This document shows positions 4,303-18,985 of a stretch of DNA of 64,000 bases, one piece after another. The notes below the pieces were generated by a model, which did no database searches, had not been told where the DNA came from, and saw only the letters and a list, made by a program, of their open reading frames with translations. The translations under genes were made by a program, and so were the position numbers. Position 1 is the stretch's first letter; the number at the start of each line of letters is the position of its first letter. This DNA is from an uncultured Acidobacteriota bacterium (GTDB taxonomy: Bacteria > Acidobacteriota > Terriglobia > Versatilivoradales > Versatilivoraceae), in contig CAYWYX010000001.1 in NCBI GenBank assembly GCA_964462735.1, forward strand, positions 4,539-68,538, in the 5' to 3' direction.

Positions 4303-5066
4303 GTGGGACTGATTCATTCCTAAATCGTTTTGACTTTAAGGATGAGTACCTGGCATCTCGAAGTGCCAAAGCAGAAAAAATTCTGAAAGTCCTAAAAAGA
4401 AATTCGGCGTTCATTAATTCCACAGCTCTTTTAGATGTTGGCTGCAGTCAGGGACACATAACTCGAATTGTAGGACAAAGGTTTAAGTTGGCTGTGGGGG
4501 TTGACAGGGAGCAGACAATAGAGCGTCAACCAGAATTTTATTTTGTACGTGCAAATGGTTGTAAACTGCCTCTTAAATCCTGTATGTTTGACGTAGTGTT
4601 ATTGAACCATGTTTTAGAACATGTATCAGATCAAGAAAGTTTACTAAATGAGACCCTTCGTGTGCTTAGACCAGGAGGAATTTGTTACCTTGCGACACCT
4701 AATCGCTACTGTATTATAGAACCCCACTATCGTTTACCTTTCCTTTCCTGGTTGCCGCGACATTTGGCTAATGTTTATGTTCGTCTGACTGGCCATGGTT
4801 CTAGTTATCTTGACTATCTACCTACTCAAAGGGAGTTAAGAAGATTAACTCAGCGTTTCCAAGTTTCAGATCAGACCAATCTGATTTTGTCTGAGCCAGA
4901 ATTCTTTTTTGATTCTGATCCTGATCTTCAAAAATTAACTTGGTTTCTTCGTCTAATTCCTTTCTCATTATTAAAGTTATTGATGCCATTTTTCCCAGTC
5001 TATGTACTAATTCTAAAGAGGAATAGAGCTGGAGGACCTAGTTTGGTTTCTAAAAAGGAGTCTTAG
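4299..5066 (+). CDS. Class I SAM-dependent methyltransferase
   Basis: Motif I LLDVGCSQG and motif post-I/II LNHVLEHV...LRPGGICYL. It overlaps the preceding GT stop by 4 nt. Confidence 0.7.
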   Translation: MSGTDSFLNRFDFKDEYLASRSAKAEKILKVLKRNSAFINSTALLDVGCSQGHITRIVGQRFKLAVGVDREQTIERQPEFYFVRANGCKLPLKSCMFDVVLLNHVLEHVSDQESLLNETLRVLRPGGICYLATPNRYCIIEPHYRLPFLSWLPRHLANVYVRLTGHGSSYLDYLPTQRELRRLTQRFQVSDQTNLILSEPEFFFDSDPDLQKLTWFLRLIPFSLLKLLMPFFPVYVLILKRNRAGGPSLVSKKES

Positions 5067-7655: not shown

Positions 7656-10622
7656 ATGCCCTTAACTAAAAACTGCAAGAAGATGATTCTGCTATATTTT
7701 TGGACAATAATTCTATCGGTGCTGTCAGTGATGGGAGTGGTTCATTTGTCAGTGGATTCTAGTTTTTTAGCTAATCAGTTGGAGGTGAACCTTCCGATAA
7801 TAAATAAGCAGTTTAAGGACATGAAACTAAATGTTGTGGAAACCTATTTAGAGAACGGTTTAAAGATTATATTAAAGGAGGACCATTCGCTACCTCTAGT
7901 AACTGTAGGGTGTTGGTACCGCATTGGATCTCAAGTGGCAGGTAGAAGATCTACAGGTATATCCCATTTTGTAGAACACATGACTTTCAAAGGTTCTGAA
8001 CAATTATTACGGAAAAATAAACAAGGGATTTCTGAATACAGTGCCATATATCCAAACGGCTATACCTTTCTTGATCAGACAGGTTATTTTTCAACAATCG
8101 TAAATAGTAAGTTAGAAAGTGTCCTTAAGTTGGAAGCCTACCGGATGCAACTTGGCAAGTTCGACCACTTACAGGTTAATAATGAACGTCGCCTTATAAT
8201 GTCTGAACTGAGGGCAAGTGACCGAAATCCCAAAATTGCTTTAGACCAGAATGTTGTTGCAGCTGCTTTTAAATTGCATCCATATCGTTGGCCTATTTTG
8301 GGTTGGCCACAAGATGTTCAGCAGTTAGATACCATTAAGATTTCTAAACATTATTCTGATTACTACTCTCCAAACAATGCGATTCTTGTAATAGTTGGTG
8401 ATTTTAAAACTAAAGATGTTTTGTCTTTAATTAATCAGTTTTTTGGTCCGATATCTAGGAAATTGTTACCTTCTTTAACACCTGTTTTCGAGCCGGAGCA
8501 AGAGGGAGAAAAAAGACTTAGAATTACTCGTCCAGGAAAAGTTTCATACATCCAACTTGCCTATCATAGTCCTGATATTCTAAATGACGATTTTTATGTT
8601 TTGTTGGTTATTGATGCGTTGCTTTGTGGTGCAAAAGGGTTAAATGTATGGTCTGGTCCATGGAATGATAATGCTCTCAGAACCTCCCGTCTATACCAAT
8701 CATTAATAGATACCCAATTGGTTACCCATGTAAACTCTAGTCTTGTGCCCACTCGAGAACCATATCTCTATAAATTGTCATTGACCCTTCCTGATTCGTC
8801 TCACTTGAGGCTAACTGAGGACACAGTGGACTTTGAATTAGAAAACATGAAGAATGTAGCAGTATCTGATAGTGACTTATATCGTTCTAAGAATCAGTTG
8901 TGGACACGTTTTTATTTAGACCAAAATAGTTTTTATAAGATTGCCCATCAACTTGGTTATTTCGAATCTATTGCTAGCTTTACAATATTGGAAAACTTTG
9001 CTGAAAAAATTAAGAGAGTAACTAAGTTAGATATCCAACGTGTGGCAAGAAAGGTTTTCAAAAAAAAATCTCGAACCATTGGTTGGTTTGTACCAGAGTT
9101 TCCAAAGAATAATGTTGAAGTAGAGGATTTGTCAGCATGGAGAAATAAATTTGATCCGAAGAAGTTAAGTTCTGACAATGAACTAGTGTCTTCAAAGGTT
9201 TTTGAAAGTCTGGACAAAAGGAGCTTGAAACATCACCCTCAAGTTGCTGGATGGTCTTTTTCAGGTGAAGGGGTTCATAACAATTCAGCAGATGCCCATC
9301 CTACATCTGAGATCAGTAATGACAAAATAATGGATCCCGCACAATCTATAGCTTCTTCTTGGAATGCTAAGCGTCAAGTTTTTCCAAATGGTGTTGTTGT
9401 TTTAACCTCCCATAATCCAGCATATAATTCTTTTAGTTTAAAGTTGGTTGTTAAGGGTGGAGCTTTTAGGGATCCAGATAACCAAGCTGGTTTAGCTAAT
9501 TTGACTGGTCGAATGGTTCCGAGTGGTTCAAAAAATTCCTTTTTGCCAGTTCATAAGATGGAGTCATTAGGCTTATTCCTACAAACAAAAACCAATTATT
9601 TTTCAACAACTTTTGAGCTTCAAGGGCTTAAGGAAAATCTCCCAAAAGCTATAGAGTTAATAGCCTTGATGGTTCGGAATGCGAATTTTTCTACGGAAGA
9701 ATTTGATAAAGAAAAAGAAATAGTTCTTAATGAACTGCTTCAAGAAAATGTGAATGATAAGCAGATAGTGGAACTATTGCTCCGGCAGAACATTTTTCCA
9801 AGAGGACATACCTTTAGACGATCTTTTAAAGGAAATACTGAAAGTGTTGGAATTCTTTTAAAATCAGATCTTGATCATTTTTATCGAAAGTTTTATCAGC
9901 CAGATCAGTTAATTCTTGCCATTTCTTCTGGTTACCAAGTTGATAGAATAATGTTATTAACTCAAAAGTATTTTGGTGATTGGAAAAATGATGGACTAGT
10001 TGAGCCTGTGGTAATTAACTCAGTAACAACGGGTCTTAAACATGCTCCTCAATTTATCCCAGTTAAAAACAAATCCTTGTGCAAACTTGTATACGGTTTT
10101 CCTGGAGTGTTAAGGAATGAGTCTGACTATTTTCCCCTGTTGCTCCTTTCTCATATCCTCAATCTTGAAGGTAGAGAGGGAGGTCGAATTCGAGGTCAGA
10201 ATGAATTTATTTCTAGTGGCTTTCTATCATTAGAGACTGTTTTGAGAAATGGACTATTTATGATCCAGATTGGTATTGTTCCTGATCAAATAGAGTCATC
10301 ATTGAAATTTCTGAAAGAAAGAATTGAAATTATAAAAGACCAAGGATTTACTCCAAAAGAACTGGAATTTTCAAAAAATGTTCTTCTCAACTCCTTGTTA
10401 ATTAAGCTTAGTTCAAATGTCGGAATTACTGATTCCATGATTGATGCTGAATGGATGGGGTTAGAGAAGAATAGTTTAGAGAAATTAATTCAGCTTATTA
10501 GAAGTATTACTCTAGAACAGTTAATCGATATTGCACGTACCCGCCTTTTTTTTGATCAGGCTAGTTTAGTCAGAGTAGGATCTTCTTGTTCATCAATTAG
10601 TACTGATCTTAAGGTGAACTAA
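7656..10622 (+). CDS. M16 family zinc metallopeptidase (insulinase-like, duplicated M16 halves, ~988 aa), secreted
   Basis: Inverted zinc motif HFVEHMTFKGSE (HxxEH). Two M16 + M16_C repeats. N-terminal signal/TM. Confidence 0.8.
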   Translation: MPLTKNCKKMILLYFWTIILSVLSVMGVVHLSVDSSFLANQLEVNLPIINKQFKDMKLNVVETYLENGLKIILKEDHSLPLVTVGCWYRIGSQVAGRRSTGISHFVEHMTFKGSEQLLRKNKQGISEYSAIYPNGYTFLDQTGYFSTIVNSKLESVLKLEAYRMQLGKFDHLQVNNERRLIMSELRASDRNPKIALDQNVVAAAFKLHPYRWPILGWPQDVQQLDTIKISKHYSDYYSPNNAILVIVGDFKTKDVLSLINQFFGPISRKLLPSLTPVFEPEQEGEKRLRITRPGKVSYIQLAYHSPDILNDDFYVLLVIDALLCGAKGLNVWSGPWNDNALRTSRLYQSLIDTQLVTHVNSSLVPTREPYLYKLSLTLPDSSHLRLTEDTVDFELENMKNVAVSDSDLYRSKNQLWTRFYLDQNSFYKIAHQLGYFESIASFTILENFAEKIKRVTKLDIQRVARKVFKKKSRTIGWFVPEFPKNNVEVEDLSAWRNKFDPKKLSSDNELVSSKVFESLDKRSLKHHPQVAGWSFSGEGVHNNSADAHPTSEISNDKIMDPAQSIASSWNAKRQVFPNGVVVLTSHNPAYNSFSLKLVVKGGAFRDPDNQAGLANLTGRMVPSGSKNSFLPVHKMESLGLFLQTKTNYFSTTFELQGLKENLPKAIELIALMVRNANFSTEEFDKEKEIVLNELLQENVNDKQIVELLLRQNIFPRGHTFRRSFKGNTESVGILLKSDLDHFYRKFYQPDQLILAISSGYQVDRIMLLTQKYFGDWKNDGLVEPVVINSVTTGLKHAPQFIPVKNKSLCKLVYGFPGVLRNESDYFPLLLLSHILNLEGREGGRIRGQNEFISSGFLSLETVLRNGLFMIQIGIVPDQIESSLKFLKERIEIIKDQGFTPKELEFSKNVLLNSLLIKLSSNVGITDSMIDAEWMGLEKNSLEKLIQLIRSITLEQLIDIARTRLFFDQASLVRVGSSCSSISTDLKVN

Positions 10623-11815
10623 TGAAGATTAACCAAATAGATTCAATCATCAAAGAATTAAAGTACTTGGAGTTGGTTGACCAACATCGTTTTCTTAGAC
10701 AGGTTTCAATTTGTGGACCACATCAACTGCAATTCAAGGGTAAAAAAATTGTTAACTTTTCCAGCAATGATTATCTTGGACTTTCTCAGCATGATTCTAT
10801 TAAAAGTGCAGCTAAACAAGCTATACAAGACTCAGGTGTTTCAGTAGCAAGCTCTCGACTTATAAGCGGGAACTTATGTTTACATGAAAAACTAGAGGAA
10901 GCTTTAGCTTCAACAAAAGAAAAAGAAGCAAGTTTAATTTTTTCTTCAGGATTTATGGCTAATATTGGTTTACTTTCTAGTTTATTAGGAAAAGGCGACT
11001 TTATTTTTAGTGATGAACTTAACCATGCTTCTATAGTTGACGCTTGTCGGTTAAGCCAAGCAAGAACTGTAGTTTTTAAACATAAAAATCTGGATCATCT
11101 TGAGACTCTGCTCAAAGATTTTAAGTCTTCTGGTCGAAGGTTAATTGTTTCCGATTCAGTTTTCAGTATGGATGGTGACATTGCAAACCTGCCGGACTTA
11201 GTAATTCTCTCCGAAAAATATGAATGCTGGCTGATGCTTGATGAAGCTCATGCAACTGGGGTTCTAGGATCACATGGAGGTGGTCTAGTGGAACATTATA
11301 AGGATCTTGGCCAGATCTTACCCAAAAAAGTGCCTCTCCTAATGGGAACACTGAGCAAATCCTTGGGATCTTTTGGTGGTTTTGTGGCTTCTAGTAAAGA
11401 AATTCGTGATTATCTCATTAACAAATGCCGACCTTTCATTTTTTCAACTGCTCTACCGCCCAGTGCTGTTGGAGCTGCACTAGCAAGTCTTAATTTAATC
11501 AAACATGATGATAGTTTAAGAAAGAAGCTTTGGGACAATGTTCACCATTTGAGTGCAGAACTGAAAAAACATGGAGTGATTTCGGGATTGGGCCAAACAC
11601 CTATCTTTCCAGTTTTGTTTAAAACTGAATCTCAGGCATTAAAAATGAGTGAAGAACTAATTGGTCATGGTTTTTTTGTAGTAGCTATTCGACCCCCTGC
11701 TGTCCCGATAGGAACGAGTCGGTTAAGAATTACTGTGACTGCGGATCATACTAGTTCCCAGATTGAAGAATTAGTTCGTATTTTGAATAAACTGCAGAAG
11801 AAATTAGTGGATTAA
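10622..11815 (+). CDS. bioF: 8-amino-7-oxononanoate synthase (BioF; alpha-oxoamine synthase family)
   Basis: PLP class I/II aminotransferase fold, FSMDGDIA with the PLP Lys region (GTLSKSLGSFGG). Followed by bioD. Its ATG overlaps the M16 stop (TAATG). Confidence 0.75.
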   Translation: MKINQIDSIIKELKYLELVDQHRFLRQVSICGPHQLQFKGKKIVNFSSNDYLGLSQHDSIKSAAKQAIQDSGVSVASSRLISGNLCLHEKLEEALASTKEKEASLIFSSGFMANIGLLSSLLGKGDFIFSDELNHASIVDACRLSQARTVVFKHKNLDHLETLLKDFKSSGRRLIVSDSVFSMDGDIANLPDLVILSEKYECWLMLDEAHATGVLGSHGGGLVEHYKDLGQILPKKVPLLMGTLSKSLGSFGGFVASSKEIRDYLINKCRPFIFSTALPPSAVGAALASLNLIKHDDSLRKKLWDNVHHLSAELKKHGVISGLGQTPIFPVLFKTESQALKMSEELIGHGFFVVAIRPPAVPIGTSRLRITVTADHTSSQIEELVRILNKLQKKLVD

Positions 11816-11873
11816 TAATGAAGAGGCCTCGAATCATGATCAAAATTAACTGAGACTCATTTTATTCTTTACT

Positions 11874-12620
11874 ATGAAAAATGGAAATTTAAAATATCGA
11901 GGTATTTTTGTTACTGCAACAGATACAGATGTTGGGAAGACTACAATAGCAGTGGGTTTAGTTAGTTTTTTGAGTCGATTAGGTTTTAATGTTGGTGTTA
12001 TGAAACCTGTTGCAAGTGGAGCAGTAAGAGGTAATTCAGGTCAGTTGATTTCTACAGATGTTACTAGATTAGTGGAAGCTTCCTTGTCAACTGACCCCAT
12101 ATCATGGGTCAATCCCTACTGTTTTAGGGCTGCTGTTGCCCCTTCACTTGCTGCTGAAATGGAGAACGTGCAAATAAAAATGGAGAGAATTTTGGATTGC
12201 TTTCAAAAAATCTCCGTCCATCACGACATAATTGTAGTGGAAGGGGCTGGTGGTATTCTCACACCGATTTTTAAAAATCTCCTCGTTGTTGATGTCATAA
12301 AGGCTCTGCAACTTCCGACAGTAATTGTTTCTAAAGCTGGATTGGGGGCAATTAACCATACTACTATGACTTATGAATGTCTAAAAAGTAGGGAACTTGA
12401 ATGTCTGGGGTTTTTTTTAAATCGGTATCCTAAATCCCCTAATTTACCTGAAAAAACTAATGCCAGAATTATTACGGCACTTACAAAAGTTCCATATTTA
12501 GGATCTATTCCTGATGTTGGAGATCAGTTTTCCTTTAAGGATTTAAGTGAAAAATTTATCAATTCAGTTAACAAAAAGTTACTCTGTCAGGTTTTGTGCC
12601 GAGAAGAAATTTTAAGTTAG
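11874..12620 (+). CDS. bioD: Dethiobiotin synthetase
   Basis: P-loop TDTDVGKTT near the N-terminus, MKPVASG, EGAGG. Confidence 0.8.
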   Translation: MKNGNLKYRGIFVTATDTDVGKTTIAVGLVSFLSRLGFNVGVMKPVASGAVRGNSGQLISTDVTRLVEASLSTDPISWVNPYCFRAAVAPSLAAEMENVQIKMERILDCFQKISVHHDIIVVEGAGGILTPIFKNLLVVDVIKALQLPTVIVSKAGLGAINHTTMTYECLKSRELECLGFFLNRYPKSPNLPEKTNARIITALTKVPYLGSIPDVGDQFSFKDLSEKFINSVNKKLLCQVLCREEILS

Positions 12621-13564: not shown

Positions 13565-14167
13565 TTGAATACTTTCATCTATCTGGTCCGCCATGGGCAA
13601 TCATTTCATAATCTTCGTGGTCTCGTAGCTGGGCAATCACCTTCTTCCCTTACCCAGCAAGGCCAAGAAGATGCCAGAATTGTCGGTCAAAGTCTCAAAA
13701 AAATAAGGTTTGACCTAATTTATTCAAGTGATCTTTTAAGAGCTCAACAAACTGCAGAGACCATAAAAAATATACTATTTTTAAAGTGCCCATTACATGT
13801 TTCAGTTCTCCTTAGAGAACTTGATTTTGGTGAATATACTAATCGACCAGTCAGTGAAGCCTTTGCCTTTTTAAATTATAGAGAAATCCGTAATAAAAGG
13901 TATCCAGGAGGTGAGGGTTTTGAAGATTTGAAGCAGAGAATCTCTCTTTTTATTAAAAAATTGTCTAATGAATTTCTTGGATTGAATATTTTAGTAACCG
14001 CTCATGCAGGGTCGATCCGAATGCTGTTGGGTTTATTGGATCTATCTGGTCAAGATAAGTGGTTCAAGCAAGTAATCAGCAACCAATTTGTTGCCAAGGT
14101 GACTCTAGATAGAAATGGGGACTTTAATGAATGTTCAGTTTTCGAAAAGGGAGAAAATGTTTCTTAG
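13565..14167 (+). CDS. Histidine phosphatase family protein (phosphoglycerate mutase-like)
   Basis: Catalytic RHG motif (LVRHGQS) at the N-terminus. TTG start. Confidence 0.7.
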   Translation: MNTFIYLVRHGQSFHNLRGLVAGQSPSSLTQQGQEDARIVGQSLKKIRFDLIYSSDLLRAQQTAETIKNILFLKCPLHVSVLLRELDFGEYTNRPVSEAFAFLNYREIRNKRYPGGEGFEDLKQRISLFIKKLSNEFLGLNILVTAHAGSIRMLLGLLDLSGQDKWFKQVISNQFVAKVTLDRNGDFNECSVFEKGENVS

Positions 14168-16509
14168 AAAGATTTCCGGGATAAACTTTGAGTGGGGCTG
14201 AGCGGAGGCTGGTCAATTTGAACTAATTTATCAAATGAGAGTACGTCCATAGGACAAGTAGTAACACAAATCCCACATGCTATACAGGAACTATTCTGAT
14301 TATCTAAGACTTCTTGTTTAAGGGCAAAATTCATTACGTCAATTCCTACCTGACAATTTCGTGAGCACTCATCACAGCCGATGCATTTGTCATTAGCAAT
14401 GATCTTAAAACGGGCCCACTTCAACTTCGAGAAAAGTTGGGCTTGTAATTCCATAAGTTTTGCAAGTGGACACCAATATCGGCACCAGATTTTTCCCCCA
14501 AGGAATGGATATAGAGTTACTGGTAGTATTCCCACCAGCCAAACGTCAGCATAGATCCGATAAACCTGGATGCCGATATCTGCACCTTGGGAAAATAGAC
14601 CATATATGTCTTTGATTAGTACTAAGATGGTTACAAGTGTTGCAAAAATTAACACTGCTAAATTCATCCATTCCCACCGAACAGAATTTTTTCCTTTTGG
14701 GGCTAGATGCCGCCACCTGTCACCTAACGTTTCTGCCAGACCACCACAGCCACATATCCAAGAGCAATATCGTTTTCCTTGGAATAGAACAAAGATTGGA
14801 AGTATTATGAAAGTAAGAAATACCCCCCAAACCACCCAGATTTGATGGGGATCATAGAAGAAAGTATAGAAGAAAAGTGGCCAAGCATAAATAATCCCAT
14901 AACTTCTCCAAGCCTGTTCAGCGAAAGCAGGATCACTAGCAAGCCTTTCGCCCATCCATTGGTGATTTACAGCTGTTTGAAAAAGGTATTCAGGGATTAG
15001 GAAAAAAAAAGTCCACTGAAAACTTAATAGGCATATATAACGCCAAATCTGGTAGTTATCTTTATGGTCTATTCCCCAGCGTTTAAGGGCTTGCAGTCCG
15101 AAGATTGTCATTAAAGTGGTGAAAAGGACGGTATACCAGAAGGCCCAAGGTCGGTCAAAGAAAGATAGGAACTCATAGCCCCAATTTGTGTAAGGCCAAA
15201 GCTCTTCTCCTTTTCCTACCTTAACACCATAAATGGAGTACCAAACAAAAAATGAAATACCCAACCAAGAGAAACGGTCGCCCTTAATCCCATAACGAGT
15301 GAGCAAAGTGAGACTTATTAACCAGATAGAAACAGCCGTCCAGGTCGGAATGAATGATAAGTCTACTGGTAATGAAAAATCTCCTCCTTGTTTAACTCCA
15401 AATAACCAGGCCCCAAAAAATCCTAGAACAGTCAATCCTATAGATCTCAGAAGGTTACCTTCCCAATCGTTTTCCATTTTGAGGCCAAGGGATTTTAGAA
15501 AATCTCTTGGCACATCTGAGCCTACCAATACAAAAGCATGATCAAATGGAAGTTGCTGTTTTTCAATCAAATTATTTTTTTGTATTTCAAGAGTAGCTTG
15601 ATTTTTTTTAAACTCAGTAATCGAAGAACTGAGTACAGTCTTAACCTTATTTGTTTGAATTGAATCTTGCAATTTCCGCTTATTATCGTTAAAGACCCGC
15701 CTGAAATCAGTTCCTCGGTAAGAGAGAGTAACATTGTTGTTTTGGCTTAGGATAATGGCTGCTTCTACTGCAGAATTGCCACCTCCTATAACTAAAATAT
15801 TTTCGTTATGATATTTTCTTGGGGAATAAAGACGATGATATACATGTTCTTGGTCTTCACCAGAAACCTCTAGTTTTTTAGGATTACCTCGTTGTCCCGA
15901 TGCGAGCACTACATATTTAGCTAGATAGGTGCTTTTGGGAGTTGAAATATGAAAGATTCCATTTATTTTTTCACATCCAGTGACCGGTTCCTTAGTGTGT
16001 AGCTTTAGTTCATTCTCAGTTATGATTTGATGCCATCGCTGAACTAAGTGTTCTTTAGTTGAACCATCTAACCAAAGTTTTCCCTTAGGTGGTTGTTTGT
16101 CGGGTTCAGCATATACCCACTTACCTTCAGGGAAATTTTCAATCGTATTTGCAATAACCTCTTTTTCTAGTAAAAGATATTGCATGCCACTCTCACTAGC
16201 CTGAAGAGCAGCATTCAGTCCTGCAGCGCCACCCCCAATGACAAGAACATCTAACAATTTGGGATCCTGCTTATCAGATTTTTTTAGTAAAGAAGAGATA
16301 TGTTCAATTACCTGGAAACCTTGTTCCATGGCATGTTTGATGACAACTGCTCCAGCTAAGTCACCAATAATAAAAAATCCAGGGATGTTGCTTTCATTAT
16401 GATTTTTTAAATACGGACGTTCATTCGATCCACTACCGGAACCCAAGATAGAAATAATCTGAGTTTTAGCTTTACTTAAGAAACTTCCAGAAAATTGTTT
16501 TTTAATCAT
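14164..16509 (-). CDS. Fusion protein: FAD/NAD(P)-binding pyridine nucleotide-disulfide oxidoreductase-like domain + polytopic Trp-rich membrane domain + NapH/COG0348-type polyferredoxin with two 4Fe-4S motifs
   Basis: Two dinucleotide-binding motifs (VLVIGGGAAG and ILVIGGGNSAVE). Then more than 8 hydrophobic segments. Then CSWICGCGG and CRYWCPLAK (CxxxCP NapH-like), followed by CIGCDECSRNC and CIACGICVTTCP ferredoxin motifs. Confidence 0.65.
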   Translation of the reverse strand: MIKKQFSGSFLSKAKTQIISILGSGSGSNERPYLKNHNESNIPGFFIIGDLAGAVVIKHAMEQGFQVIEHISSLLKKSDKQDPKLLDVLVIGGGAAGLNAALQASESGMQYLLLEKEVIANTIENFPEGKWVYAEPDKQPPKGKLWLDGSTKEHLVQRWHQIITENELKLHTKEPVTGCEKINGIFHISTPKSTYLAKYVVLASGQRGNPKKLEVSGEDQEHVYHRLYSPRKYHNENILVIGGGNSAVEAAIILSQNNNVTLSYRGTDFRRVFNDNKRKLQDSIQTNKVKTVLSSSITEFKKNQATLEIQKNNLIEKQQLPFDHAFVLVGSDVPRDFLKSLGLKMENDWEGNLLRSIGLTVLGFFGAWLFGVKQGGDFSLPVDLSFIPTWTAVSIWLISLTLLTRYGIKGDRFSWLGISFFVWYSIYGVKVGKGEELWPYTNWGYEFLSFFDRPWAFWYTVLFTTLMTIFGLQALKRWGIDHKDNYQIWRYICLLSFQWTFFFLIPEYLFQTAVNHQWMGERLASDPAFAEQAWRSYGIIYAWPLFFYTFFYDPHQIWVVWGVFLTFIILPIFVLFQGKRYCSWICGCGGLAETLGDRWRHLAPKGKNSVRWEWMNLAVLIFATLVTILVLIKDIYGLFSQGADIGIQVYRIYADVWLVGILPVTLYPFLGGKIWCRYWCPLAKLMELQAQLFSKLKWARFKIIANDKCIGCDECSRNCQVGIDVMNFALKQEVLDNQNSSCIACGICVTTCPMDVLSFDKLVQIDQPPLSPTQSLSRKSF

Positions 16510-16730
16510 AGTGTTAAGACTTCATTTTCTTAAATCGTGTTTACTTCAGATTTCTGGGAAGCCTACCGAAATCTTGCACCTGACCAGCATATCTGAGTGC
16601 TGGGGTGATTAAAACTATTCCTAGTTATGCAGGATGCCAGAACAATAGATTGATTTACCACATTTCCAATATCTTTTAAAAACAAACTTGAAATAAGATT
16701 GTCCTCTTGACTTGCAGAAATTCACTCAGT

Positions 16731-18488
16731 CTATTCTAGAGCTACAGAAATCAACTTGCTAAGTCGGGCTAGCCCCTCTGCAAGATCAGAAAAAATATGT
16801 ACTCTTAAAATACGGCGATTGCGTGCACTTAGAACCTCAAAATCTCCTTGAGCTTGGCTTGCCTCAATAAATCCAAATGTACAATTTTGAGATGGTATCT
16901 TCAGGTCAATTTTTGTTTGACAGGTGATTTGGAGAAAAACACCATTATTAGGTCCTCCTTTGTAGAGCTGACCAATAGAATGTAAAAAACGAGGGCCAAA
17001 ACTGAGACAAGTGGCAACTTGTAGTTGGTTTCTGACAACGTGACGAATAGTTTGAAGGTGTTTTTGATGAGTGTCGTTCATATTAAGATAAGCTAGGATT
17101 GCAAAATAATCACCAGACTGGAGTCTGTTAAGGTGCGCTCTAATCAGATCTACCATGGAACAACTAGGTCCTGTCATTTGGCACAAAAAATCCCGATTTT
17201 GTTGAGTAGCAAATAGACCAAACCCATTTTCACAAAGGATTGGATTTTCTAGGGGTAATAAACCGGTTTTTTTGTGCTGAGCAACTAGTTTGTTTGTTGC
17301 AAACTTGCTAACTTCAACGTCTGGTTGGTTAAATGGATTTATTTGCAGGATAGATCCAGCTACCGCTATAGCAATTTCCCAACGAAAAAACTCTTGGCTG
17401 AGGTTATAGAGATCATCAACTACAATACGGATAACAGGATGACCAGCTTTTTGAATCTTTTCAACAGCCTTATCTAATTTAAGTTGTTTTGTCTGAATTA
17501 ATCGTAAGTAAATAAAAATACGATCAGAACTATATACTTCTGGTGGCCCCATTTGCTCGCCTTCGATTGGTATGAAGCCCTTACCCTTTTTCCCAGTAGA
17601 TTCAGCTAATAGTTGTTCTAACCAAGAGGATATTCCTGAAATTTCAGGAGAAACAATAAAAGTCACTTTGTTTTTCTGTTGGTACCCTAAGATAGCTAAA
17701 ATGGTGCCTAGAATGAGACCCGGATTATTGATTTCCTCAGCAGATGCATTACAAGCCTTTACCATATAATTCGCGCGATTAATAAATTTAGCTATGTCCA
17801 TGCCCATTAAAACTCCCGGAACCTTTCCGAAAATGGATAAAGCTGAAAAACGTCCTCCAATGGAGGGATCTCCAAGTAAAATAGAACGAAAGTGATGAGT
17901 TTCAGCTATTTTTTTCAGTTTCGATTTAGGGTCAGTAATGGCAAGGAAATGATGTCCAGCTTGCATCTCTCCAAAGAGCCCCCTAAGCTTTTCAAAGAAG
18001 TATTGTCTCAGAAGGTCAGTTTCTAGAGTGCTTCCAGATTTACTTGAAACAATAAATAATGTCCGAGTAAGATCAAGTTTAGATTCTACTGCTTTGATCT
18101 GATTAGGATTAATCGAGTCTAAAACATAGAGTTCTGGAAAGCCTCCTAACTTGCCAAAAGTCTTCTTCAGAACTTCAGCAAAAAGGCTAGCCCCACCCAT
18201 ACCAATCAGTAAAATTTGAGAAAATCCTTCATGCTTAATTTCTTGAGAGAACTTTAAAAGACTTTGTGTGTCAGAAGATTCTCCTAAAGTTGTAGTTAAC
18301 CAACCAAGCCAGTTATGCTCCCCTGAGTTAGTCCAGAGGGTAGCATCATTTTTCCATAAACGGAGGACCTTATTTCTATTCTTCCAGTCATCAATGCTAA
18401 TTGAGAAAGCTTTGAGTGATTTTTCCCCAATAGAATAGGTTAGCTGGTTTAGAGTTACATTTTCTTGTTCGTTAAACTGATTGTTCAA
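16731..18488 (-). CDS. pgi: Glucose-6-phosphate isomerase (PGI/SIS family)
   Basis: PGI signature SKSGSTLET and the conserved ...ISSWLEQL.. / E..G..G region. 585 aa. Confidence 0.8.
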   Translation of the reverse strand: MNNQFNEQENVTLNQLTYSIGEKSLKAFSISIDDWKNRNKVLRLWKNDATLWTNSGEHNWLGWLTTTLGESSDTQSLLKFSQEIKHEGFSQILLIGMGGASLFAEVLKKTFGKLGGFPELYVLDSINPNQIKAVESKLDLTRTLFIVSSKSGSTLETDLLRQYFFEKLRGLFGEMQAGHHFLAITDPKSKLKKIAETHHFRSILLGDPSIGGRFSALSIFGKVPGVLMGMDIAKFINRANYMVKACNASAEEINNPGLILGTILAILGYQQKNKVTFIVSPEISGISSWLEQLLAESTGKKGKGFIPIEGEQMGPPEVYSSDRIFIYLRLIQTKQLKLDKAVEKIQKAGHPVIRIVVDDLYNLSQEFFRWEIAIAVAGSILQINPFNQPDVEVSKFATNKLVAQHKKTGLLPLENPILCENGFGLFATQQNRDFLCQMTGPSCSMVDLIRAHLNRLQSGDYFAILAYLNMNDTHQKHLQTIRHVVRNQLQVATCLSFGPRFLHSIGQLYKGGPNNGVFLQITCQTKIDLKIPSQNCTFGFIEASQAQGDFEVLSARNRRILRVHIFSDLAEGLARLSKLISVALE

Positions 18489-18535: not shown

Positions 18536-18985
18536 CTAACTATAACGACTCTCGATCCTTTTGATTTTTTCTAGACGCCTTCTATGGCGATCCTCATCTG
18601 TGAACTTAGCACTTAAATAGGTTTGTATTAATTCACGAGCTAATTCCAATCCAATTATCCGTGCTCCAAGAACCAGCACATTCATGTCATCGTGTTCTAC
18701 ACCTTGGTGGGCAGAATAAGTGTCGTGACAAAGTCCTGCACGGATTCCAGGTAACTTGTTGATAGCTATAGAAGCACCTACACCACTGCCACATATTACA
18801 ATTCCACGATCAGCCTCTGATTTTCCTAGGGCAACACCTACTTTTTCAGCAAAGTCGGGATAATCAACTGAGGCTGAACCATAAGTTCCATAGTCTTTGA
18901 TTGTATGACCTTGGGCCTCAATAAACTCCTTAACGCTTTCTTTGAGAGGAAAACCCGCATGATCAGAACCCAGTGCAACTCGCAT
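18536..18985 (-). CDS. rpiB: Ribose-5-phosphate isomerase B
   Basis: MRVALGSDHAGF...ICGSGVGASIAINK..GIRAGLCHD. 149 aa. Confidence 0.85.
   Translation of the reverse strand: MRVALGSDHAGFPLKESVKEFIEAQGHTIKDYGTYGSASVDYPDFAEKVGVALGKSEADRGIVICGSGVGASIAINKLPGIRAGLCHDTYSAHQGVEHDDMNVLVLGARIIGLELARELIQTYLSAKFTDEDRHRRRLEKIKRIESRYS

Follow-up and report, generated by a model that had tools for sequence, protein, structure and literature searches.

What does a bacterial protein do that joins a flavoprotein, an aromatic membrane domain and a polyferredoxin in one polypeptide? The question is raised by a gene in the window, by which we mean the whole stretch of 64,000 nucleotides analysed here (positions 4,539 to 68,538 of contig CAYWYX010000001.1, assembly GCA_964462735.1) from an uncultured Acidobacteriota bacterium of the Versatilivoraceae. 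The gene is located on the minus strand, where an ATG opens an open reading frame (ORF) of 781 amino acids that covers exactly 14164..16509 in the ORF listing. The fusion belongs to a real and strongly conserved family, and we propose that its product is a membrane-integral, single-polypeptide, NADPH-oxidising Fe-S flavoenzyme, in which electrons would pass from NADPH via FAD and Fe-S clusters to a group of five cysteines, here called the Cys5 site, and from there to quinone. We give this proposal, which draws on sequence and modelled structure, a little less than an even chance.

An earlier note on this stretch had described the product as a tripartite fusion of a disulfide-oxidoreductase-like flavoprotein, a tryptophan-rich membrane domain and a NapH-type polyferredoxin. 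The ORF and all the motifs that it quoted were found in place, namely FFIIGDLAG (residues 45-53), VIGGGAAG (90-97), VIGGGNSAVE (240-249), CSWICGCGG (582-590), CRYWCPLAK (676-684), CIGCDECSRNC (709-719) and CIACGICVTTCP (742-753), and the Pyr_redox_2/3 and Fer4_5 models with which it had suggested searching all match in Pfam. Pyr_redox_3 aligns with residues 89-345 (E 4e-39), Pyr_redox_2 within residues ~87-347 (E 2e-28), and Fer4_5 and several 2x[4Fe-4S] models, including Fer4_21, at residues 656-757. Among the NCBIfam models, YpdA/Bdr ranks first for residues 87-348 and NapH/MauN for residues 566-760, both far below their curated cut-offs. Residues 351-565 consist of 7.9% W, 11.6% F and 6.0% Y, in agreement with the aromatic-rich membrane segment that had been described, and the protein ends ~20 residues past the ferredoxin domain.

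A trivial explanation for this architecture would be that an assembly error, a frameshift or a gene fusion had artificially joined separate flavoprotein and NapH-like genes; an assembly or frameshift artefact had been named in the earlier note as a possible refutation. We found nothing in favor of this explanation and consider it to have next to no chance. In a search space of 5.8 billion proteins, more than 1000 homologues were identified, and the best 120 matches, which were inspected, are 685-795 amino acids long, nearly all full length and 61-96% identical. Relatives with the same architecture were recovered down to ~27-44% identity when 1.8 billion cluster representatives were scanned exhaustively with HMMER, and a profile search identified members at ~30-35% identity in cultured Leptospira species. 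Hundreds of assemblies that are independent of each other, complete chromosomes and the cultured Leptospira among them, contain the protein as one full-length ORF. The start methionine column is invariant in an alignment of 23 close family members, where the mean column identity is 76%, and the gene is under purifying selection, with a dN/dS of 0.18 in the comparison with its closest relative (96%; locus L001), which is found in a marine Terriglobia metagenome-assembled genome (MAG) from Station ALOHA. Furthermore, an AlphaFold2 (AF2) model built on a superfamily alignment of 141 sequences consists of one compact, confident fold (predicted local distance difference test, pLDDT, 92.5; predicted TM-score, pTM, 0.89), which suggests that the whole chain forms a compact assembly. 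This model was used instead of the one obtained with the shallower 23-sequence alignment (pLDDT 58.8). Because the full-length architecture is conserved across phyla, the tripartite fusion is a strongly conserved family and not an artefact.

A search of GTDB contigs, with one genome per species, returned 284 stretches with a relative, the best 80 of which were analysed. All of these 80 are MAGs and each relative is at least 59% identical. They belong to the Acidobacteriota, KSB1, Ignavibacteriota, Bacteroidota, Calditrichota, Latescibacterota, Acidimicrobiia, Dadabacteria, Planctomycetota, Spirochaetia, Elusimicrobia and Myxococcota. Since identities of 59-72% are retained across ~12 phyla, periplasmic loops included, the function appears to be tightly constrained. 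The names attached to the homologues are generic only, such as "NAD(P)-binding domain-containing protein," "thioredoxin reductase/polyferredoxin" and an automatic "NosR/NirI." In the open-access literature, which was the extent of our search, we found no description of the fusion or of the permutation discussed below, and the earlier statement that this is not a named family still holds. The protein is not categorically new because its parts are known folds; what is new is how they are combined. A permuted NADPH/FAD input module is fused to a membrane polyferredoxin of the NapH-like kind, four helices extend the membrane part, and the gene has a partner gene dedicated to it.

The flavodomain belongs to the flavoproteins with two dinucleotide-binding domains (tDBDF), in which the canonical order of motifs is the FAD dinucleotide-binding motif (DBM), ATG, the NAD(P)H DBM, GxxP and GD (PMC1924876). 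Here, the FAD-binding, NAD(P)H-binding and GD motifs are all present and conserved in the 141 sequences (GGGAAG 92-97, GGGNSA 242-247 and GD 49-50, with G49 and D50 nearly invariant), but the GD motif precedes the FAD GxGxxG motif and the canonical order is broken. The GD segment, consisting of a strand, the motif FFIIGDLAG and a helix (residues 22-78; 16276..16446, minus strand, as are all segments of the gene), is followed by the YpdA- and thioredoxin reductase (TrxR)-like FAD and NAD(P)H domains (residues 85-345; 15475..16257), which contain the FAD GxGxxG motif (16219-16236) and the NADPH-type motif GGGNSA...LSYRG..F.R (15697-15786).

The suspicion, already voiced in the earlier note, that the domain is circularly permuted was supported by three tests. 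When residues 19-78 were placed after residue 352 in silico and the hidden Markov models (HMMs) were rerun, the alignment to YpdA was extended from 1-264 to 1-307 of 316 positions, that to TRX_reduct from 2-251 to 2-279 of 300 and that to Pyr_redox_2 from 2-252 to 2-291 of 291, with a gain of 4-6 bits. When the N-terminal segment alone was made into a profile and compared with all sequences in the PDB, the matches were almost exclusively to the GD strand and helix that follow the NAD domain in flavoproteins, as in dihydrolipoamide dehydrogenase (289-331, E 4e-5), glutathione reductase (297-336), TrxR (300-340 of 343), ferredoxin-NADP reductase (FNR; 275-294 of 342) and AhpF (260-282 of 310). 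Finally, the AF2 model places a strand at residues 45-47 and a helix at 57-74 in this segment, with a pLDDT above 90. A sequential structure alignment to YpdA spans only ~261 of 326 residues. We therefore regard the flavodomain as a circularly permuted variant of the tDBDF fold.

The NAD(P)H domain carries the motif L-S-Y-R-G-x-E-F-x-R, with R265 present in all 141 sequences and R271 in 139 of them. The motif aligns with the YRG of the NADPH-dependent YpdA, and an acidic residue after strand beta-2 is absent. Because the YRG...R motif is kept and the acidic residue is missing, the enzyme probably prefers NADPH. The closest flavodomain matches are the NADPH-dependent YpdA/Bdr and the TrxR-type ferredoxin-NADP reductases. 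The latter, exemplified by Bacillus subtilis YumC (3lzw), the Chlorobaculum tepidum enzyme (3ab1) and Bacillus cereus FNR (6gar), are soluble homodimers that use a diffusible ferredoxin and have a C-terminal sub-domain over the flavin, whereas the window protein is integral to the membrane, has the permuted motif order and carries its ferredoxin within its own chain.

These similarities could also indicate a TrxR/YpdA-type disulfide reductase that is tethered to the membrane and acts on a low-molecular-weight disulfide or a thioredoxin-like protein, in which the Fe-S part is regulatory. YpdA/Bdr and TrxR are the best matches in both sequence and structure, and the JGI automatic names include "thioredoxin reductase/polyferredoxin" and "putative YpdA family." However, neither a CxxC motif nor any conserved cysteine was found in residues 1-581 in the 23- and 141-sequence alignments. 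Firmicutes YpdA has a conserved Cys14 in its GxGxxG motif (bioRxiv 10.1101/2020.12.02.408641), the position of which is occupied by an alanine here (GGGAAG vs. GGGPCG) that is invariant in the close family. The scores are far below the cut-offs, 155-160 bits vs. 339.9 for YpdA/Bdr (TIGR04018), which is less than half, and 70-78 bits vs. 343 for TrxR (TIGR01292), the redox CxxC of which is lacking. The window protein also differs from YpdA/Bdr (PDB 7a7b, 7a76) in the N-terminal position of the GD segment and in the fusion of the flavodomain to a membrane and Fe-S module. To our knowledge, the phyla that carry the fusion protein are not known as bacillithiol producers. Moreover, conservation in the protein is highest at the 13 invariant cysteines and in the membrane core, which is at odds with a regulatory appendage. 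With no redox cysteine in the flavodomain, this candidate is largely refuted and we regard it as very improbable. The earlier description as disulfide-oxidoreductase-like thus applies to the fold only: because no cysteine is conserved before residue 582, disulfide chemistry is not supported, the flavodomain is probably not a disulfide reductase, and FNR-like chemistry may be expected instead.

The permuted module is not restricted to this family. Matches that start from query residue ~20-38 were also obtained to standalone proteins of ~320 amino acids, and to fusions in which the module is located directly after 2x[4Fe-4S] domains in proteins with multihaem cytochromes c (c7/c3), cNMP-binding, FHA and TPR domains (P0209, P0217, P0226, P0235, P0240, P0269). 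Because the permuted flavodomain adjoins 2x[4Fe-4S] domains in such unrelated fusions, it seems to be a modular adaptor dedicated to passing electrons from NAD(P)H to Fe-S clusters. The tDBDF literature that we found does not describe a permuted adaptor that is reused in several architectures.

How the electrons might continue from the flavin is indicated by the membrane part. The AF2 model contains eight transmembrane (TM) helices (353-373, 389-408, 412-430, 455-480, 485-515, 556-577, 614-636 and 640-670), rather than the more than eight segments that had been suggested. The positive-inside rule, applied by hand to the AF2-defined loops, assigns the loops KGDR (409-412) and KRWGIDHKDNYQIWR (476-490), the Cys loop (578-612) and the stretch past TM8 to the cytoplasm. 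Both Cys motifs, the ferredoxin domain and the flavodomain, and with them all 13 invariant cysteines, are predicted to be cytoplasmic, and the same topology has been reported for NapH and CcoG (PMC8267372). TM1-TM4 with the aromatic periplasmic loop 431-454 (residues 353-480; 15070..15453) are defined by the AF2 helices; for TM1-TM4 and the aromatic periplasmic loops there was no match in Pfam or NCBIfam, and the best hit in a profile search of PDB had an E-value of 0.37. The four-helix core TM5-TM8 (residues 485-695, including the periplasmic aromatic loop 516-555; 14425..15057) is matched by TIGR02163 and Fer4_5, and it appears to form, together with the ferredoxin domain, a remote NapH-like module.

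The ferredoxin domain (residues 703-760; 14230..14403) is matched by Fer4_21, Fer4_9, Fer4_7 and Fer4_10, and its two [4Fe-4S] clusters are assigned to C709/712/715/752 and C742/745/748/719. Exactly 13 cysteines, all from residue 582 onwards, are invariant in the superfamily alignment, these eight and five at the membrane face. The five comprise the first Cys motif, C582-x3-C586-x-C588 (14746-14766), and the second, C676-x3-C680-P (14467-14484). The CxxxCP signature noted previously applies to the second of these motifs but not to the first, which reads CxxxCxC. The Cys5 site could hold a third cluster or a metal. No histidine is conserved across the superfamily alignment, and neither histidine, cysteine nor methionine is conserved on the periplasmic side. 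The ferredoxin domain, the Cys loop, TM4-6 and the periplasmic loop 516-555 are the most conserved regions, and TM1-3 are the least conserved.

Among characterized proteins, NapH/MauN is the best match for residues 566-760. It has a similar core of four helices, Cys motifs that follow TM helices and, after the core, a 2x[4Fe-4S] domain on the cytoplasmic side. The scores of 59-61 bits vs. 213 for TIGR02163 and of 41-44 bits vs. 234 for PRK09477 are far below the cut-offs, and the window protein differs in its first motif (CxxxCxC), in the four extra helices that bring the total to eight and in the N-terminal flavoprotein; the direction of electron flow is probably also reversed, towards the membrane. 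Neither nap genes (including napG) nor mau genes are present in the window or in the examined neighbourhoods of related loci. NosR/NirI and PceC/RdhC likewise combine a NapH-like TM core with a C-terminal ferredoxin domain, but these proteins have an extracytosolic FMN-binding domain, whereas here there is no FMN_bind match in Pfam and no nos or rdh context, and the flavin module is predicted to be cytoplasmic and NADPH-dependent, with non-covalently bound FAD. The JGI label "NosR/NirI" is an automatic partial match, and no NosR model is found among the 25 best NCBIfam matches.

More relevant for the function is CcoG (FixG/RdxA), a cytoplasm-facing, NapH-like membrane polyferredoxin reductase. 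One alternative is that the window protein is a CcoG-like metal reductase with a built-in electron donor, in which the NapH-like core and the Cys motifs reduce Cu(II) or another metal at the cytoplasmic face. CcoG belongs to the same broad class, faces the cytoplasm and has two [4Fe-4S] clusters and two Cu sites (PMC7558416; PMC8267372). No physiological donor of its electrons is known (PMC7558416), and an NADPH/FAD module fused to such a protein would supply one. The five invariant cysteines at the membrane face could form a metal site, and the resemblance by eye of the partner protein described below to a metal-binding motif would also fit. On the other hand, NCBIfam ranks NapH/MauN first and no CcoG model is included among the 25 best of 52 matches (E <=0.01), the periplasmic Ig-like domain of CcoG is missing, and neither cco genes (ccoNOQP/GHIS) nor cop or other copper genes recur among the examined neighbours. 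Nor does the linkage to pentose-phosphate and NAD(P)HX-repair genes described below have any obvious tie to metal handling. We therefore judge this alternative to be clearly unlikely.

Under the hypothesis that we favor, NADPH, largely supplied by the oxidative pentose-phosphate pathway, would reduce FAD, which would pass single electrons to the two [4Fe-4S] clusters and these to the Cys5 site at the cytoplasmic membrane face. From there, the electrons would reach a lipophilic acceptor, most likely quinone, in the conserved aromatic membrane core. The net reaction would be that of an NADPH:quinone oxidoreductase in one polypeptide, comparable to NDH-2, which is also a tDBDF flavoprotein that transfers electrons from NAD(P)H to membrane quinone, with no pumping as far as known. 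The enzyme could serve to re-oxidise pentose-phosphate NADPH for respiration or to keep the quinone pool reduced against oxidative stress, and in most genomes a small protein encoded upstream would work together with it. We infer that the acceptor is quinone or another membrane acceptor. A membrane-soluble acceptor is favored because no histidines or haem ligands are conserved, which leaves no haem wire to carry electrons to the other side; with no haem-type ligands and no periplasmic cysteines conserved, quinone is the most economical reading. It has also been noted that NapH is regarded as a quinone-interacting subunit (PMC8238504).

The hypothesis of NADPH re-oxidation fits with the gene neighbourhood. 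Immediately upstream of the gene and on the same strand are genes for a PGI-family isomerase (16731-18488) and RpiB (18536-18985), identified with the Pfam models PGI and LacAB_rpiB, as had been recognized in the earlier note, and the enzyme gene is possibly co-transcribed with this pair. A promoter and terminator scan gave results no different from shuffled sequence. At its other end, the enzyme gene overlaps by 4 nucleotides (14164-14167) with the 3' end of a convergent histidine-phosphatase gene (13565-14167, plus strand), which leaves no room for a terminator between the two. The window PGI homolog is itself divergent, with 51 bits to Pfam PGI over residues 90-301 of 585 and a predicted TTG start, and its activity is putative.

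In the acidobacterial clade, the gene order is RpiB-PGI-[G6PD-6PGL]-[partner]-target, where target denotes the enzyme gene, G6PD is glucose-6-phosphate dehydrogenase and 6PGL is 6-phosphogluconolactonase. Other orders are GlcK-partner-target-6PGD-G6PD in the Latescibacterota, with GlcK for glucokinase and 6PGD for 6-phosphogluconate dehydrogenase, partner-target-MsrAB-G6PD-6PGL in the Bacteroidota, G6PD-6PGL-GlcK-partner-target in the Acidiferrales and target-6PGD-like in a distant member from the Ignavibacteriaceae (32% identity). Overall, genes for NADPH production or related functions (G6PD, 6PGL, 6PGD, glucokinase, PGI, RpiB and the NAD(P)HX epimerase YjeF_N) are neighbours in 19 of the 62 loci of at least 10 kb, representing ~8 independent lineages, where a rough estimate of the chance expectation is ~2% per locus. 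In four loci, the next gene downstream of the target encodes YjeF_N, which repairs damaged NAD(P)H, and in one further locus this gene is found upstream of the target (all five: L013 4680-5348, L026 10954-11613, L027 3846-4504, L037 3179-4138, L047 96-473). It is followed by glucokinase in two of these five.

The small upstream gene of ~220 codons was counted with tblastn in the 75 loci with enough flank, and was found directly upstream and on the same strand in 68 of them (for example L034 7164-7838 and L043 7257-7973, in a family that spans L002-L080). The encoded partner protein has a signal-peptide-like N-terminus (a signal or TM segment), a domain with the motif GE.C.VCG, two TM helices and a C-terminal Cys4 zinc ribbon, C(P).CG..NHPSA..C..CG..SEV. 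In Pfam, it yields sub-threshold zinc-ribbon matches only and no family above threshold. By eye, its N-terminal domain presumably resembles the YHS/TRASH metal-binding motif, which was not detected by Pfam. The topology is ambiguous, with the CxxC domain apparently exported as judged from the sequence.

The partner gene is absent from the window, where no other copy was found in the 64 kb searched. Instead, the 221-nucleotide spacer between pgi and the enzyme gene contains a decayed relic of its 3' end, the zinc ribbon (16539..16658, minus strand), which reads CITRNSFNHPSTQICWSGARFR*ASQKSEV with an in-frame stop. The tblastn score of 24.3 bits was reached by none of 100 shuffled sequences (median 16.9), and the relic retains the NHPS and SEV landmarks and only the first cysteine of each of the two C-x-x-C-G pairs. 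The same relic is present in L001, which also lacks the partner; the spacers are identical at 204 of 221 positions, and their divergence is close to the synonymous rate. In the relatives L006, L007 and L012 the position of the spacer is occupied by G6PD-6PGL. We conclude that a recent deletion in the window lineage removed the greater part of the partner gene and perhaps G6PD-6PGL as well. Since the enzyme is still under purifying selection in this lineage, the partner looks accessory.

The near-universal association with the partner raises another alternative, namely that the two proteins together supply electrons from NADPH to the cell envelope, for MsrP, exported MsrAB and thioredoxin-like proteins. 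The enzyme would then be a functional counterpart of Fre/MsrQ or DsbD that works without haem, with the exported CxxC domain of the partner as the acceptor or shuttle. Such a role agrees with the signal-peptide-like N-terminus and conserved GE.C.VCG motif of the partner, with the high conservation of the periplasmic loops and with the proposal that NapH-like modules serve as modular transmembrane electron conduits, beside MsrQ-like and DsbD systems (PMC8238504). At locus L013, the order is MsrP (432 bits; 83-1075), partner, target, with no msrQ in between, so that the pair takes the usual place of msrQ. Lipoprotein-type MsrAB genes are located beside the target in L043 (10366-11475) and L032 (10285-11427), and genes for DsbH/Thioredoxin_7-like proteins adjoin the targets in L085 and L017. 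Together, these neighbours form an envelope-repair theme that is weaker than the pentose-phosphate one. However, the conserved cysteines are all predicted to be cytoplasmic and no periplasmic histidine, cysteine or methionine is conserved, so that we see no chain of cofactors that would cross the membrane. The MsrP in L013 is the only true one among the neighbours according to an NCBIfam check, in which the Mo-enzymes of L042 and L073 proved to be other proteins. Also, the enzyme remains under purifying selection in the window lineage without the partner, the topology of which is ambiguous and for which no family match exceeds the threshold. Overall, we think that an envelope-directed role is possible but fairly unlikely.

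Some of these observations nevertheless weigh against the quinone hypothesis. We infer both the direction of electron flow and the acceptor, no quinone-binding motif can be named in the protein, and modules of the NapH type are usually seen as relays through the membrane or as oxidisers of quinol. A simple quinone reductase at the cytoplasmic face also explains neither the very high conservation of the aromatic loops 431-454 and 516-555 in the periplasm nor the near-universal partner with its apparently exported CxxC domain, and the exported MsrAB lipoproteins, MsrP or thioredoxin-like genes that adjoin the target at some loci hint at an envelope-directed role. Finally, most loci, including those in Leptospira, lack the pentose-phosphate association, and the Leptospira loci show neither this nor the envelope-repair theme. 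The enzyme may provide an unrecognised route for NADPH into respiration or into envelope redox repair.

The known routes for electrons from NAD(P)H to the bacterial membrane are Complex I, NDH-2 and Nqr. We suggest, with considerable doubt, that the family represents a class of NAD(P)H dehydrogenases, with a role in respiration or redox balance, that has so far gone unrecognised. It would feed NADPH from the (cyclic) oxidative pentose-phosphate pathway straight into the quinone pool, and it is widespread in mostly uncultured phyla, including the Acidobacteriota, KSB1, Latescibacterota, Calditrichota, Ignavibacteriota and others. If so, a fourth, NADPH-specific, Fe-S-based and single-subunit route would alter models of carbon and energy flow in abundant uncultured phyla from soil and marine environments, and would explain how pentose-phosphate NADPH is re-oxidised. 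It would also mean that NapH/CcoG-type membrane polyferredoxins can be driven by pyridine nucleotides from the cytoplasmic side. The donor and mechanism of this class of modules have long been open questions, which a natural, "self-powered" NapH/CcoG-type module would make directly testable in one polypeptide.

A few other features of the neighbourhoods may be mentioned. In several phyla, genes for M16 (insulinase-type) peptidases are located within a few kb of the target, namely in the window (7656-10622, plus strand), L043 (13802-16851), L085 (11612-14307) and L058. The window gene is a single, double-length gene of 988 codons, and the other loci have two adjacent genes of ~450-500 codons. 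We do not judge this proximity to be meaningful, as it could be due to chance if these genomes contain several M16 copies. In the window, the M16 gene is followed by BioF-like (8-amino-7-oxononanoate synthase) and BioD-like genes (10622-12620, plus strand), with the start of bioF, at 10622, overlapping the stop of the M16 gene. Synteny of BioF, endonuclease IV and M16 is common to the acidobacterial relatives L001-L012. Finally, a Crp/Fnr-family regulator (cNMP_binding and HTH_Crp_2) is encoded no more than 8 kb from the target in L023, L029, L060 and L062, which belong to KSB1, the Acidobacteriota and two Latescibacterota, and a protein of this family could regulate the system.

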